This document shows positions 6,679-38,395 of a DNA stretch of 38,395 bases, in pieces. Origin of the DNA: a virus (Duplodnaviria; Caudoviricetes); IMG/VR virus record IMGVR_UViG_3300030095_001230, positions 1 to 38,395 of that record, one strand, 5' to 3'. The translations under genes and the position numbers were made by a program. A model generated the notes under the pieces. That model worked only from the letters and a program-made list of their open reading frames with translations. It did not search any database and had not been told where the DNA came from. Every line of letters starts with the position of its first letter. Positions within the stretch are counted from its first letter, which is position 1.

Positions 6679-7845
6679 TCAATTCAAGTACCCAGCAATT
6701 TCATTTTGATCTTCTCTATTCTTATCAAAGTTTACCCATTTACCCCTGACATAATGATCTGAGATCTGTTTACTTCCATGTCCAGCATCAGCCATTATGT
6801 TTTTCTTTTTATGTGCAAGGTAATCTCTTAAAGTAATAACAAAGACTCTAAAACTATGAGGATTAATTCTTCCAACAACTCCCAGCTCACTATTAAATTT
6901 ATTTAGTATTCTATTACTAAAATTGTTTCCCTGAATAATAGTATTTCTACTACTAGGAAATAATAATTTTGTTTCTGGTTTATGCTGCATCAATAATTGT
7001 TTAATTAATATTCCCATAGGTTTTGATAAAGCAACAGTTCGCATACCAGTTGATGTCTTTGTTTGATAATGCAGTTCATTGTTACCAGTATTAACTGTTT
7101 TGTTAATGTCGATTGTATTCGTTCCAGGATTATAATCAGTAATTAATAAAGGTAAAACCTCCCCACATCTTCCTCCCAGCTCACACATTAGTCTAACCAT
7201 AACATAGTGTTGATAGTTCCATGATTTCAATTTGTCTAATAAGCCATTGATTTTCTTTAATGACTCATCGAACCCACCCTGAACAATAACTGGATCTTGT
7301 TTATTTTCCTCGTAATCTTTTTTAATAGATTTATATTCATCACGATCAACTTCTCTACATGGATTGAATTGATTTCCTAAATTATAATTAAGAGCATATT
7401 TAAATAATCTTGTTAATAAATTAAAACATTGTTTATTAGAACGCACACTAAAATTTTCATTCATATGTACATTAATTAAATTTACATCAGGAACAGTAAA
7501 ATCTTTGACATGAATATCACTAATAAAAATATTTTTTATTTTAATAGTCCACAGCTGCTTTGCACAATAATCATAATCATTAAATGTAGAAGATGATGGT
7601 GGATTTTTTCTATTCTCTAAACTTGCTCTATATTTGTTGTAAGTATCTTTAAGTGAAACAAAATCTAATCCGTAAAGATTATTTTTTATTTGCAAATCAA
7701 TCTCATCTTTTAAACGAGAGCAAGGTATTAATTCTTTTTCAGTAATTCTTTTTTTCTTCTTTGGATTTTCAGCATCTATAATTTCAAAATAATGTTTTTG
7801 TCTAGCTGTCCAATAATAAATATTAGTAGTTGAATATCGACTCAT
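6679..7845 (-). CDS. int: Tyrosine recombinase / phage integrase
   Basis: Catalytic motifs GGRCGEVL (R), TKT (K), HSFR (HxxR), AGH...DHY (H, Y); 388 aa with N-terminal extension; adjacent to attP. Confidence 0.95.
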   Translation of the reverse strand: MSRYSTTNIYYWTARQKHYFEIIDAENPKKKKRITEKELIPCSRLKDEIDLQIKNNLYGLDFVSLKDTYNKYRASLENRKNPPSSSTFNDYDYCAKQLWTIKIKNIFISDIHVKDFTVPDVNLINVHMNENFSVRSNKQCFNLLTRLFKYALNYNLGNQFNPCREVDRDEYKSIKKDYEENKQDPVIVQGGFDESLKKINGLLDKLKSWNYQHYVMVRLMCELGGRCGEVLPLLITDYNPGTNTIDINKTVNTGNNELHYQTKTSTGMRTVALSKPMGILIKQLLMQHKPETKLLFPSSRNTIIQGNNFSNRILNKFNSELGVVGRINPHSFRVFVITLRDYLAHKKKNIMADAGHGSKQISDHYVRGKWVNFDKNREDQNEIAGYLN

Positions 7846-7879
7846 TTTCCCTTTCTTTTTTGTTTAGCAACATATGCTA

Positions 7880-7908
7880 TTTATAGTATATATTTTATTT
7901 TATTGCAA
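7880..7908 (-). promoter_or_regulatory. Sigma70-type promoter for int
   Basis: TTGCAA-17 bp-TATAAA on the minus strand; the -35 overlaps an arm-type repeat at 7907-7914. Confidence 0.6.
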
Positions 7909-8133
7909 CTGACACTTTCACTTTTGTCAGTTAGTGCTGTCAGTAAATCTGTCAGTTAGTAGTACATATAATGGCGTATTTACTAGGGATATAATGGGAT
8001 ATAAAGGTATATACTAAATTTAAATAATGGCAGAAAACAAGGATAAAAAAAAAAGAGCTTTTGATTAACAGACACTAGCTACCCCCAATAAAACAGCCAT
8101 AAATCAACACGCTGTCAGTTAATATGTCAATTA
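7907..8133. mobile_element. attP: arm-type repeats, Xis-type repeats and symmetric core
   Basis: TGTCAGTTA-like repeats at 7907-14 (inverted), 7925-33, 7938-46, 7950-58, 8113-21, 8125-33; 10-bp direct repeats GGGATATAAW at 7986-8005; dyad core AGCnnnTGA-TTAACAG-ACAnnnGCT at 8056-8080; IHF-like AATCAACACGCTG at 8102-14. Confidence 0.8.
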
Positions 8134-8190
8134 ACTATTTTAAAATCTCCAAAAACCAAGGTACAAAATCGATTGCTCCTTTACTTTTAT

Positions 8191-8219
8191 TTGAAATGTA
8201 GCAAATTATTCTATAAAGG
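8191..8219 (+). promoter_or_regulatory. Promoter for tRNA-Asn
   Basis: TTGAAA-17 bp-TAAAGG ending 10 bp before the tRNA. Confidence 0.5.
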
Positions 8220-8229
8220 ATTTTCAAGT

Positions 8230-8304
8230 TCCTTGGTAGCACAATGGTAGTGCGTCTGACTGTTAATCAGAAGGTTACTGGTTCGAGTCCAGTCCAAGGA
8301 GCCA
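8230..8304 (+). tRNA. trnN: tRNA-Asn (GTT), complete with encoded CCA
   Basis: Cloverleaf: TCCTTGG/CCAAGGA acceptor, GCAC/GTGC D stem, TCTGA-CTGTTAA-TCAGA anticodon arm, ACTGG-TTCGAGT-CCAGT T arm, discriminator G, then CCA. Confidence 0.98.
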
Positions 8305-8516: not shown

Positions 8517-8935
8517 ATTGTACCTCCATACGATTCATTTTCATCGTGCATTTCTTCACATTCTTTTAAATGATTATCTTGTAACTCTTTTAAATATTTA
8601 AACCATTTTTCAGGACTAACATTTTCATGCAGCATACCAACTGTCCTGGCTATTCTCTTAACTCTAAATCTAATTATCTCATCACTTTCATCAACTTTAT
8701 AAAAAACAACAAATCCAGGTACATCAAATTTTAATGCTAATTTTTTTGTTAATGTATATGCCTTAAATGTTTGACCAGTATCTTTTGCTAATTCTATAAA
8801 TGCCAGGGGTTTATAACAATGCTTGCACACTTCAACACTATCAACATCTATCATGGCAATTCCCTCAAACTTACGATGCCATTTACTGTAAGCTTCTTGT
8901 TTTAAATTAGAATACCACTCTCTAGCCATCAACAA
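8513..8935 (-). CDS. Hypothetical protein, probable restriction-endonuclease-like fold
   Basis: MIDVDSVEV-CxxC-PLAFIELAK resembles a PD-(D/E)XK-type core. Confidence 0.6.
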   Translation of the reverse strand: MLMAREWYSNLKQEAYSKWHRKFEGIAMIDVDSVEVCKHCYKPLAFIELAKDTGQTFKAYTLTKKLALKFDVPGFVVFYKVDESDEIIRFRVKRIARTVGMLHENVSPEKWFKYLKELQDNHLKECEEMHDENESYGGTI

Positions 8936-9128
8936 CCTCTACTGATCTTGCATTGTAAGGATGATGTTTAAGTTTATTTCTTTTAATAAGTGCGTGAACT
9001 AAACGATGTATTCCTGATTTAGATTTAAGGCGTAACCCCTTCATCATATCTTCATACGATGGAGAATAACCATGCCATCTAATATAACTTTTTATGTATT
9101 CAAGAAGTTCAGCTTGTCTTTTTGTCAT
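8922..9128 (-). CDS. LexA DNA-binding-domain-only protein
   Basis: MTKRQAELLEYI....HGYSPSYEDM..GL.LKSKSGIHRLV.AL; no S24 peptidase domain. Confidence 0.9.
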   Translation of the reverse strand: MTKRQAELLEYIKSYIRWHGYSPSYEDMMKGLRLKSKSGIHRLVHALIKRNKLKHHPYNARSVEVVDG

Positions 9129-11814: not shown

Positions 11815-11820
11815 GAACCA

Positions 11821-11884
11821 TTCCTAAACATATTAGGAACGCTTCTATTATAATATCGTAGAATTTGTCAAGGATAATAGAATT
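11821..11884 (-). promoter_or_regulatory. Leftward early promoter/operator region
   Basis: TTGACA on the minus strand at 11866-71; two AATTCTA half-sites; ATCGTAGAATT shared with the Cro promoter; TTCCTAA/TTAGGAA inverted repeat (11821-39) over the RBS. Confidence 0.6.
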
Positions 11885-11885
11885 A

Positions 11886-12737
11886 TTAAAGTAAATCCAT
11901 TATAACATCGTCTTTTCGGAGTGATATATCCCACACTTCTACTGGGTACATTTCATAAAATAAACAATCTTTAAGTTCATAATGTTCAACCCACATACCA
12001 GATTTATCTCTTTTCATACCCTTAAACCATTGCCATTTAACTTTAAATTCTGTTTTTTTTGGATCTTTATAATCTGTATCTGTCCATTCTATAGGTTTAC
12101 CAAGATAATATTTATCATCTGTTGCACATTTTATTAATGTATATTTACAAATTAACCAATCACGACCATGTTGTTTTTTATAAATTTTATTTTTTTGATC
12201 ATTAAATAAACAAACATTTGTATCGTTGCGTGGTTGATCTTCTGTTCTAAACACAACAGCTTTCATACCTGGATCTGGTTTTTTCATATTAGAAAAATAA
12301 ATTGCTTGTTTTGGTTTGTTAAATGGAATTGGATCGCAAAAACCTTTTTCAAAATTAAAACTAAATACTATTTCTGTTTTAACATTAGTGTTTGGTTCTT
12401 CTAAAATATCCATCGCAGATATTCTTATTATTCTGCTAAATTCTTGAAGCTGCATCGCATTAAAATGTATCTTGCCATTCATTATATTATAGATTGTAGC
12501 ATGACTCATTTTTGTCCAACCAATAGGCATATCTCTTGTCAGAGCAGCAAACTCTTTTGGTGTTTTTCCAAAAGAATTAAAAGCTGAAATTAATCTACCT
12601 AATTGTTCTGAATATTTTTCTTCGGTACTAATAGAATTATCAATATCTATTAAATGTTTTGTATCATCGTCTTTATTCACAAAGTATGAGTTCTCCTTGT
12701 TAAAGTTTTTGTCTAGTAAATGTTTTTGTGTAATCAT
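11886..12737 (-). CDS. CI-like repressor (XRE HTH + divergent C-terminal beta domain)
   Basis: TPKEFAALT...MSHATIYNIMNGK...QLQEFSRII HTH; divergent from the Cro-like gene. Confidence 0.75.
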   Translation of the reverse strand: MITQKHLLDKNFNKENSYFVNKDDDTKHLIDIDNSISTEEKYSEQLGRLISAFNSFGKTPKEFAALTRDMPIGWTKMSHATIYNIMNGKIHFNAMQLQEFSRIIRISAMDILEEPNTNVKTEIVFSFNFEKGFCDPIPFNKPKQAIYFSNMKKPDPGMKAVVFRTEDQPRNDTNVCLFNDQKNKIYKKQHGRDWLICKYTLIKCATDDKYYLGKPIEWTDTDYKDPKKTEFKVKWQWFKGMKRDKSGMWVEHYELKDCLFYEMYPVEVWDISLRKDDVIMDLL

Positions 12738-12892
12738 CTATGCGACACTTTCGGTGGTGCTGTTTGTTGGTCTGTATAAAAACCATTTTGTGAACCCAAA
12801 CCAAGACTTGTTCTTCGTGAAGTTGCAGAATTATAATAAAAAAATCTTTTTGTTATTAAATCAGTAAAAGATTTCCAAACTAAATTAAGCAT
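12734..12892 (-). CDS. Putative 52-aa leader ORF coupled to the repressor (not in ORF track)
   Basis: MLNLVWKSFTDLITKRFFYYNS...PPKVSHR; its TGA overlaps the repressor ATG (ATGA); promoter TTGATT-17-TAATAG ends 6 nt before its ATG. Confidence 0.5.
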   Translation of the reverse strand: MLNLVWKSFTDLITKRFFYYNSATSRRTSLGLGSQNGFYTDQQTAPPKVSHR

Positions 12893-12947
12893 ATTATTCT
12901 ATTAATAGCATTTAATTCTATAATCAAATAAAAAATAAATTATTTTG

Positions 12948-12976
12948 TTGAAATTCTAGGATCGTAGAATTATAAG
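12948..12976 (+). promoter_or_regulatory. Rightward early promoter with palindromic operator
   Basis: TTGAAA-17-TATAAG; AATTCTA-GGATCG-TAGAATT palindrome (12952-71) fills the spacer; ATG follows 5 nt after the -10. Confidence 0.75.
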
Positions 12977-12981
12977 CTATT

Positions 12982-13188
12982 ATGACTTTAAAAGAGTGGC
13001 AAATCCTAGAGAATATAAAAACTCTATCAGAATTGGCTAAAAGACTCAAAGTTGCTGAGTCCTCTAACCCAGCGAGGTTAGTACAAAGATGGTTAAATGG
13101 CGAGTCTATGCCAAGAAATCATCATTTATCTTTAATATTTAAGGCAACTAATGGCAAAGTTACAGCAAACGACTTCCTTACCTACTAA
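12982..13188 (+). CDS. Cro-like HTH regulator
   Basis: MTLKEW...SELAKRL...VQRWLNGESMPR...TNGKVTANDF motif. Confidence 0.85.
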   Translation: MTLKEWQILENIKTLSELAKRLKVAESSNPARLVQRWLNGESMPRNHHLSLIFKATNGKVTANDFLTY

Positions 13189-36944: not shown

Positions 36945-38395
36945 ATGACAATTTCTAGCACGACTACGAAGAATTCGTATAGTGGTAATGGATCTACTAC
37001 AACCTTTGCTTATGGGTTTTACATACCAGCATCAACAGATATACAAGTAATTGTAAGATCTGCTACTGGAACGGAAACAGTAAAAGCTGAAGGTACTGGA
37101 TCAACTAACTATGCTATTACAAATGTTGGCAACGCCAGCGGTGGAAACATAGTATTTGTAACTGCACCAATATCAGGGGAAACAGTTGTACTTCGAAGAA
37201 ATACAGCAAAGACACAAGCAACTGATTATGTTGCTAATGATCCTTTTCCAGCAGAAACACATGAGGATGCATTAGATAAACTAACAATTATTGGTCAAGA
37301 TTTACAAGAGCAGATTGATCGTTCATTAAAAATTTCAAGAACGAATACAATGACTTCAACAGAATTTACTGTTGGATCAACAGATCGTGCATCAAAGATT
37401 TTAGCTTTTGATAGTTCAGGAGAATTATCCGTTACCCAAGAATTAGGTACAGTAAAAGGTAACTGGGCTGCATCAACAGCTTATGTTGTAAGAGATATAG
37501 TTAAAGATACATCCACTAATAATATTTTTATTGCTTTAACAGCTCATACATCTTCTGGCTCACAGCCACTAACAACAAATACAGATAGTGCTAAATGGAG
37601 TTTATTAGTAGATGCTGCATCGGCAACTACAAGTCAAACTGCTGCTGCATCAAGTGCTACTGCTGCTGCAAGTTCTGCAACAGCTGCTGCATCATCCGCA
37701 TCAACTGCATCTGGTCATAAAGATACTGCAACGACAAAAGCAAGTGAAGCTGCATCATCCGCTACAGCTGCGGCATCATCCGCTACGTCTGCTGCTGCAA
37801 GTTATGATAATTTTGATGATAGATATTTAGGAGCAAAATCTTCTGATCCATCTAATGATAATGATGGAGATAGTTTAATTACTGGTGCTTTATATTTTAA
37901 TACATCAAACAATGTAATGATGGTTTACACAGGAAGTGCCTGGGTAAGAACAACACCAACATCTTCTAACCAAACAAATATTAATACTGTTGCTGCTGAT
38001 GCTACTGATATTGGAAATGTTAGTGGTAGTATTTCTAATGTTAATACTGTCGCTGGATCAATTTCAAATGTTAATACAACTGCTGGATCAATATCCAATG
38101 TTAATACAGTAGCTGGTGCAATAGCAAATGTTAATACAACTGCATCTAATATTACTGGAGTAAATAGTTTTGCTGATAGATATAGAGTAGGATCTAGTGA
38201 TCCATCTTCTTCACTTGATGAGGGAGATCTATTTTATAACTCATCAGATAATGCTTTAAAATATTACAACGGATCATCCTGGTCATCTATTGTTGCTGAT
38301 ACCGATGTTAAAGTTCTTGTAAGTTCAAATGACTCAACTGCTGGTTATTTGAATGGTAAATTAGTTGCTGGTACAGCAATTACTTTCACAGAAAA
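36945..38395 (+). CDS. Main tail fibre protein, T7 gp17-like N-terminal anchor (3'-truncated; not in ORF track)
   Basis: MTISSTTTKNSYSGNGSTTTFAYGF...LRRNT..TQATDY...PFPAETHEDALDKLT; RBS AAAGGA; Ala/Ser-rich coil; reads open towards the window end. Confidence 0.93.
   Translation, partial: MTISSTTTKNSYSGNGSTTTFAYGFYIPASTDIQVIVRSATGTETVKAEGTGSTNYAITNVGNASGGNIVFVTAPISGETVVLRRNTAKTQATDYVANDPFPAETHEDALDKLTIIGQDLQEQIDRSLKISRTNTMTSTEFTVGSTDRASKILAFDSSGELSVTQELGTVKGNWAASTAYVVRDIVKDTSTNNIFIALTAHTSSGSQPLTTNTDSAKWSLLVDAASATTSQTAAASSATAAASSATAAASSASTASGHKDTATTKASEAASSATAAASSATSAAASYDNFDDRYLGAKSSDPSNDNDGDSLITGALYFNTSNNVMMVYTGSAWVRTTPTSSNQTNINTVAADATDIGNVSGSISNVNTVAGSISNVNTTAGSISNVNTVAGAIANVNTTASNITGVNSFADRYRVGSSDPSSSLDEGDLFYNSSDNALKYYNGSSWSSIVADTDVKVLVSSNDSTAGYLNGKLVAGTAITFTE
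37977..38156 (+). repeat. Six 30-bp (10-aa NVNTVAGSIS-type) tandem coding repeats in tail fibre
   Basis: AATGTTAATAC(T/A)...GCTGG recurring at a 30-bp period. Confidence 0.85.

Follow-up and report, generated by a model that had tools for sequence, protein, structure and literature searches.

A seven-base core matching the tRNA-Asn anticodon loop, and a tRNA-Asn gene beside it, point to tRNA-dependent lysogeny in a marine phage family

How might a temperate phage integrate through the anticodon loop of a host tRNA gene if its own attachment site carries neither half of that gene? The locus that raises this question lies in a virus record of 38.4 kb (G+C 33.1%), analyzed over its whole length and referred to below as the window. 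The window contains a tyrosine integrase and a lambda-like cI/cro region. No terminal repeat is present between positions 1-200 and 38196-38395, and both ends lie in tail-fibre-like sequence; the record is therefore likely a genome that is permuted or slightly incomplete. In its head and tail genes, the phage is related to HTVC010P-type pelagiphages, with 64-70% identity in the major capsid protein, and its G+C content and length fall within the range of that group (29-36% and at least 5 kb). Gene sharing, computed for two isolates, amounts to 14 of 45 genes (31%) for HTVC028P and 15 of 45 (33%) for HTVC010P. Because a passage of PMC8477408 sets the criterion at 40% or more of genes shared with an isolate of the group, we call this phage related to the HTVC010P-type group rather than a member of it.

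Integrase and attachment site

The integrase gene (6679..7845, minus strand; PF00589, phrog_1) encodes 388 amino acids. Residues R226, K263, H330, R333, H356, and Y365 are invariant in an alignment of 49 homologues, a set that we take to be the tyrosine integrase catalytic pattern. A search of a phage collection with the window integrase at E 1e-5 returned no match, and the protein is not detectably similar to the integrase of HTVC028P (best E 0.25). From sequence reading, the int promoter is predicted at 7880..7908 on the minus strand (TTGCAA, 17 bp, TATAAA).

The dyad at 8056-8080 reads as an earlier, sequence-only reading of this DNA had described it, and its center (8065..8071) is CTGTTAA on the minus strand, identical to the anticodon loop of tRNA-Asn. 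We assign these 7 bp as the predicted overlap region, within which crossover would occur. It is bordered by predicted core-type integrase half-sites, one on the int side (8054..8064), which mirrors the D-stem/anticodon-stem side of the host tRNA, and one on the tRNA side (8072..8082). Further out lie arm-type sites with TGACA-type repeats: one inverted (7910) and three direct (7925, 7938, 7950) copies within 7907..7960 on the int side, and two direct copies (8113, 8125) within 8111..8133 on the tRNA side. The core and the tRNA gene of the phage share a 10-bp match, CTGTTAATCA, which is present in the window at just these two places. That no tRNA 3' half follows the core, as claimed earlier, is correct, although the statement needs widening, since both tRNA halves are absent there. 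We do not claim a decayed tRNA 5' half in attP, where only 7 bases match. An attL terminator formed from the host D-stem and a phage T-run stays no more than an idea, the T-run not being conserved in relatives.

By themselves, the core signals carry little weight: of 9 dyad positions 6 match, a fit equaled at 1.8% of window positions, and the 7-mer CTGTTAA occurs 14 times in the window. Both figures would suit a reading in which the phage tRNA copy (8230-8304) is itself attP and the match at 8065-8071 is due to chance. We consider this barely credible, because the arm repeats flank the core and not the phage tRNA, the recombinant junction described below lies at 8065, and the phage tRNA is far from host sequences, with a low target score. 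Moreover, the core signals are conserved across relatives, which makes them more than a chance occurrence.

The integrase alignment was used to fetch 51 loci (9 viral and 42 metagenomic, some of them redundant) for this comparison. The core is visible in 37 of these, spanning 42-100% integrase identity, and the 7-mer is invariant in all 37, with 18 distinct pairs of flanks around it. An invariant 7-mer between variable flanks is how a strand-exchange overlap between two tyrosine recombinase half-sites is expected to look. The other 14 loci are all truncated, with at most 468 nt upstream of int. They include L031 and L032, which show no core within 468 and 372 nt, respectively, and are uninformative because an inserted gene displaces the core to 391-921 nt upstream in five other loci. 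In several relatives (L006, L034-L036, L046), the att site is separated from int by extra, inserted genes. The arm repeats keep nearly fixed distances from the core, with a similar layout in 26 of 26 distinct att regions: on the tRNA side, the clade with 56-100% integrase identity has TGACA at -58 and -46 relative to the core, and the 41-45% clade has a single exact copy at -45.

No tRNA half accompanies the core in any of the 37 family loci. Instead, 34 of the 35 loci of sufficient length have a whole tRNA-Asn, always inverted, at a distance of 116-159 bp from the core; the contig of L016 ends inside the tRNA, and that of L029 begins on the first core base. The exception is L025, where the att site is kept and the tRNA is gone: relative to L026, a 101-bp gap removes the whole tRNA and leaves the dyad, so that L025 is either a natural tRNA-less variant or an assembly artefact. 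The cargo is Asn throughout the family, with no variation in the isotype of core and cargo anticodon.

A junction contig and the predicted target

Contigs joining 8065-8071 to host tRNA-Asn halves, which the sequence-only reading had proposed as a check, were found once, as an attR-like junction in run X5. The other seven of the eight runs examined, out of 22 listed, gave none, and no attL junction was found in the eight. The X5 contig (1,935 nt, depth 4.87) ends in window positions 8065-8094 without any difference, and the 30 letters before 8065 are the reverse complement of the 3' half of a foreign tRNA-Asn. This half follows directly on the loop, and identity to the phage starts exactly at 8065, where the contig switches, so that its phage side includes the half-site at 8072..8082. 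A second X5 contig, at a depth of 2.6, crosses attP and stops at 8094; a third, at a depth of 2.9, begins at 8065. Such ends are expected where an assembly branches at the edge of the core, with an assumed word length of 31. The junction is attR-like, its common core being 7 bp long, and it has 30 bases on the phage side, one below the 31-base bridging rule.

The foreign half points away from Pelagibacter. Among 251 sampled alphaproteobacterial genomes, the 30-base junction half is exact in one (G810) and present at one mismatch in one more. Among 301 Pelagibacterales genomes it has no exact match and one at two mismatches, and in viral contigs there is none. It is part of tRNA-Asn in G810 and 22 relatives, all of which have a single tRNA-like match. 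G810 has a genome of about 1.6 Mb with 29.1% G+C and a 16S sequence 82.05% identical to that of Pelagibacter, and its order comprises 187 genomes. For AEGEAN-169/HIMB59, parts of PMC10308909 report 82.5% mean 16S identity, 1.26-1.84 Mb, and 27-32.5% G+C, and an excerpt of PMC10734472 recognizes two families in the HIMB59/AEGEAN-169 order. The size, G+C content, and 16S of G810 fit these bulk features. The host is thus likely a member of a streamlined alphaproteobacterial order, likely HIMB59/AEGEAN-169 judging by these bulk features, and not Pelagibacter. According to a preprint (bioRxiv 10.64898/2026.08.25.747067), HIMB59 cells carry rare, often integrated phages.

The target was also predicted with a half-site matrix built from phage sequences only (10 cores, integrases at least 56% identical). 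In a complete Pelagibacter genome (G001), it ranks tRNA-Asn first of 359 CTGTTAA sites (15.8 bits, with the next at -1.8). With permuted matrix columns, tRNA-Asn came first in 63 of 2000 trials, never reaching the real score. In G810, of which 1.18 of about 1.57 Mb was covered, tRNA-Asn again ranks first, of 243 sites (15.9 against 3.5 bits for the next). With a matrix for the 41-45% clade, which counts against this target, tRNA-Asn comes only 63rd among the 359 sites of G001 and 3rd among the 243 of G810. Since the flanks of tRNA-Thr(TGT) outscore those of tRNA-Asn, the matrix partly recognizes tRNA arms in general, and specificity comes from the loop. At 4.1 bits, the tRNA of the phage itself falls well short of host tRNA-Asn, which reaches about 16, a difference that would limit self-recombination.

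Could the X5 contig instead represent the attP of a sister phage that carries a tRNA 3' half, or a chimera? The target would then be known by prediction, and may be the tRNA-Asn of Pelagibacter. The far side is visible for 30 bases only, the core shares 11 bp with Pelagibacter tRNA-Asn as against 7 bp with the G810 type (both scoring about 16 bits), and the structural genes resemble those of pelagiphages. However, a 3' half is present in none of the 37 family loci, and the half seen in X5 is in no viral contig. In addition, the shared right-hand X5 contig runs unbroken for 4.9 kb at a depth of 2.9, less than the summed incoming depths of 2.6 and 4.87; a host contig bearing a few junction reads would explain this better than another phage. 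We therefore regard a sister phage or chimera as very unlikely, and even then an arm would have recombined with tRNA-Asn at the same base.

For the target to be a gene whose loss matters, it should be the only one of its kind, and the presumption of a single-copy tRNA-Asn is borne out in both candidate host groups. Of 41 genomes around G810, 39 have one tRNA-like Asn match and two have none (second matches are non-tRNA by eye), the count for G810 itself being taken from 1.18 Mb. In Pelagibacter, tRNA-Asn is single in five of five genomes and is one of 32 tRNAs in G001. Given this single copy and the equal matrix score, Pelagibacter may also serve as a host.

Searches for an integrated copy covered genomes that are mostly incomplete. 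No prophage of the integrase family was found with integrase peptides in the genome contig collection, or with the family alignment in 401 Pelagibacterales genomes and in the 187 genomes of G810's order; a portal protein search of 146 genomes of that order gave none either. The sole match of the attR pattern in 401 Pelagibacteraceae genomes, L182, is an ordinary 1.7-kb island, where the tRNA is intact and a decayed 3' half is present. A 1.7-kb island in a Pelagibacteraceae genome (L348, G064:C13:24141-26000) has one radical-SAM-like gene (by eye) between an intact tRNA-Asn and the decayed 3' half. Junction patterns in viral contigs retrieved 8, 44, 120 of about 280, 19, 0, and 3 stretches, none with family arms or flanks. 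Among the candidates dismissed, L204 is an attP with a tRNA 3' half that belongs to another integrase, and L059-L061 and L236-type loci have tRNA 5' halves followed by non-tRNA sequence, without family arms or flanks. Unrelated phages do target the same tRNA-Asn loop with a restoring tRNA half. One such marine phage (L059-L061, L498-L500) carries the 5' half of a G810-type tRNA-Asn beside its integrase, which suggests that it likely uses the same host group and target with ordinary repair.

The cargo tRNA-Asn and its possible control

ARAGORN finds one tRNA in the whole window, a complete tRNA-Asn(GTT) with encoded CCA at 8230..8304 on the plus strand. It lies at a distance of 158 bp from the core, in inverted orientation. 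The gene thus stands as the sequence-only reading placed it; its "own promoter" is a different matter, since a sigma-70 scan made no call there. From the sequence, a promoter is predicted at 8191..8217 on the plus strand (hexamers at 8191 and 8212, 15-bp spacer). A contig from one RNA run spans 7900-8234, which as a contig alone cannot show transcription.

The cargo gene appears to be under structural selection. Its 11 distinct variants in the family have all stem cells paired (231 of 231), and compensatory change is found in 14 of 21 pairs of the cargo tRNA across these variants, against a shuffle control that ignores relatedness. At 54/75 identity to the tRNA-Asn of G810 and 57/76 to that of Pelagibacter, the window tRNA has diverged too far to be a recent copy of either. 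Its anticodon loop is identical to that of the host tRNA-Asn.

These observations make it probable that the locus is a minimal attP, that crossover occurs in the 7-bp loop of the host's single tRNA-Asn, and that the phage tRNA supplies the lost function, an arrangement known as tRNA-dependent lysogeny. The proposed splitting of the host gene without repair draws its support from the X5 junction and from the co-occurrence of core and cargo tRNA in the family. With the integrase bound to arm and core sites, strand exchange likely takes place across the anticodon loop, and integration would leave two useless tRNA-Asn halves. The host 5' half would then face int, and the 3' half would follow the phage arm with neither a promoter nor a 5' half. 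The phage tRNA-Asn, 158 bp inside that same prophage end and with its own predicted promoter, would take over Asn decoding. The host gene would be restored on excision; for a host with a single copy, losing the phage tRNA in the integrated state would be lethal. From this arrangement we infer that the integrase binds these sites, that lysogens express and charge the phage tRNA, and that they depend on it.

How the cargo gene might be controlled is suggested by an operator-like dyad, TAG(C/A)A-N5-T(G/T)CTA, of which the window has three copies where 0.38 would be expected; three were reached in one of 100 shuffles. One copy (7865..7879) lies just downstream of the predicted int -10 box, the second (8199-8213) lies across the spacer and -10 box of the predicted tRNA promoter, and the third, an exact one, lies between the cI-like and cro-like genes (12906..12920), with weaker copies at 12887 and 12965. 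Because the motif was defined on the window, its relatives provide the real test. Of 17 distinct regions upstream of the tRNA, 15 have the tRNA-promoter dyad without any mismatch and 16 have it when one mismatch is allowed. The three-site layout (int, tRNA, cI/cro) recurs in four of four distant records (G402-G405), one of which has a fourth site, and thereby extends to phages with 42-44% integrase identity.

Two regulators flank the third site, a putative CI-like repressor (11886..12737, minus strand; phrog_8, E 2e-4) and a Cro-like protein (12982..13188, plus strand; phrog_35), our candidate dyad binder. The latter is 52-99% identical in relatives reaching it, whereas the gene at the cI position is not detectably similar in four of five relatives compared. 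Since the dyad is kept while cI is swapped and cro conserved, Cro is a likelier binder than CI. By analogy with lambda, binding by Cro would leave the tRNA on in lysogens. We infer that Cro may be the dyad-binding protein and would shut the tRNA, int, and cI promoters in lytic growth. If CI were the binder, the tRNA would be turned off in lysogens, which would count against tRNA-dependent lysogeny. Around the window region 11815-12981 and in L018, L436, L438, and L439, the gene opposite cro encodes 84-283 aa in types without detectable similarity, and it differs even where its neighbors are 95% identical, as in a swapped immunity module.

The dyad was also considered as a host LexA (SOS) box and rejected: the 200 bp upstream of G810 lexA lack it and hold a GTTC/GAAC-N7 repeat, presumably the LexA-box consensus, and the SOS-type pattern occurs in the window at chance level. 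Separately, the window encodes, at 8922-9128 on the minus strand, a 68-aa protein that consists of a LexA DNA-binding domain alone. It is 45-48% identical to the N terminus of host LexA (G810, G001), is present in most relatives checked, and is possibly a non-cleavable SOS modulator.

The overlap of the dyad with the predicted tRNA promoter, and its presence at the int and cI/cro promoters, also bear on a second view of the cargo, in which integration into tRNA-Asn is real and the tRNA serves mainly lytic growth or early infection. It would then be repressed in lysogens, which would be short-lived or rescued otherwise, and would supplement Asn decoding or resist a host anticodon nuclease. Codons for Asn make up 6.1% of phage codons, the genomes searched hold no prophage, and L025 is without the tRNA, all of which would agree with such a role. 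However, the sole tRNA carried is of the very isotype that is cut, it stays beside attP across 42-100% integrase identity, its anticodon loop equals that of the host, and retention of the dyad through swaps of cI, with cro conserved, points away from CI. On balance, we find a mainly lytic role unlikely and continue with tRNA-dependent lysogeny.

More tentatively, and with considerable doubt, we suggest that in a widespread family of HIMB59/AEGEAN-169 temperate phages one Cro-type operator governs the repressor, int, and tRNA promoters together, so that the replacement tRNA-Asn is a regulated lysogeny gene. If so, the only source of tRNA-Asn in the cell would be kept or given up through the lysis-lysogeny switch, and no prophage could leave a living host once it had lost its tRNA end.

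Relation to known systems

The strategy as such is already known from actinophages, pelagiphages, and Sinorhizobium prophages. Portions of PMC10865867 define and prove tRNA-dependent lysogeny in actinobacteriophages (Fionnbharth K4, Cluster L, Gaia, Gordonia CQ2/DL). Like the window phage, these have a tyrosine integrase, an attP with arms upstream of int, a short core in a host tRNA gene that is not reconstructed, a cognate but divergent phage tRNA, and natural tRNA-less variants. They differ in isotype (Lys, Ile2, and Leu, as against Asn(GTT)) and in core length (8-17 bp, as against 7); in the window family, by contrast, the presumed host is a marine alphaproteobacterium and the tRNA has a fixed place 116-159 bp from the core. 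Dependence of the lysogen, proven in the actinobacteriophages, is here a prediction.

Closer in habitat are HTVC019P, HTVC025P, HTVC119P, and HTVC200P, which, according to bioRxiv 10.1101/410191, split SAR11 tRNA-Cys or tRNA-Leu and carry a substitute. These too are marine podoviruses that leave the split gene unrepaired, and the tRNA they bring is of the type they disrupt, lying upstream of the integrase in HTVC119P and HTVC200P; they belong to another phage group, target Cys and Leu, and have cores of 11-46 bp group-wide. Among HTVC010P-type phages, with which the window shares head and tail genes, part of PMC8477408 describes tRNA-Asn(GTT) as a common target (attB), cores of 14-43 bp, and isolates without a tRNA. 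The shared core of HTVC028P likewise ends at this loop, in an orientation to int that agrees with that in the window, but at 40 bp it includes the 5' half and restores the tRNA gene (PMC8477408, in part). In Sinorhizobium meliloti, Lo5R7ANS-like prophages, also alphaproteobacterial, inactivate a host tRNA gene and carry a replacement, differing in their soil host, their tRNA-Leu(UAG), and their record of two strains (excerpts of PMC11476347; PMC12429752, in part, covers this system too). In a literature search that reached few subscription journals, we found no report of a split-and-replace design for tRNA-Asn or of an attachment site in HIMB59.

New in this case are Asn as the isotype, a core of 7 bp, the likely host, and a dyad common to the tRNA, integrase, and cI/cro promoter regions. 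Being shorter than the 14-43 bp cores found by BLAST-based prediction in the text of PMC8477408 that we draw on, a 7-bp core would leave such phages unassigned or lead to their misassignment from the cargo tRNA. With the present case, tRNA-dependent lysogeny would take in tRNA-Asn as well as a family of marine podoviruses related to HTVC010P, in which it would be the standard design. The case would also tie an uncultured phage to a streamlined bacterial order by sequence, and the shared operator may offer a handle on how the replacement tRNA is regulated.
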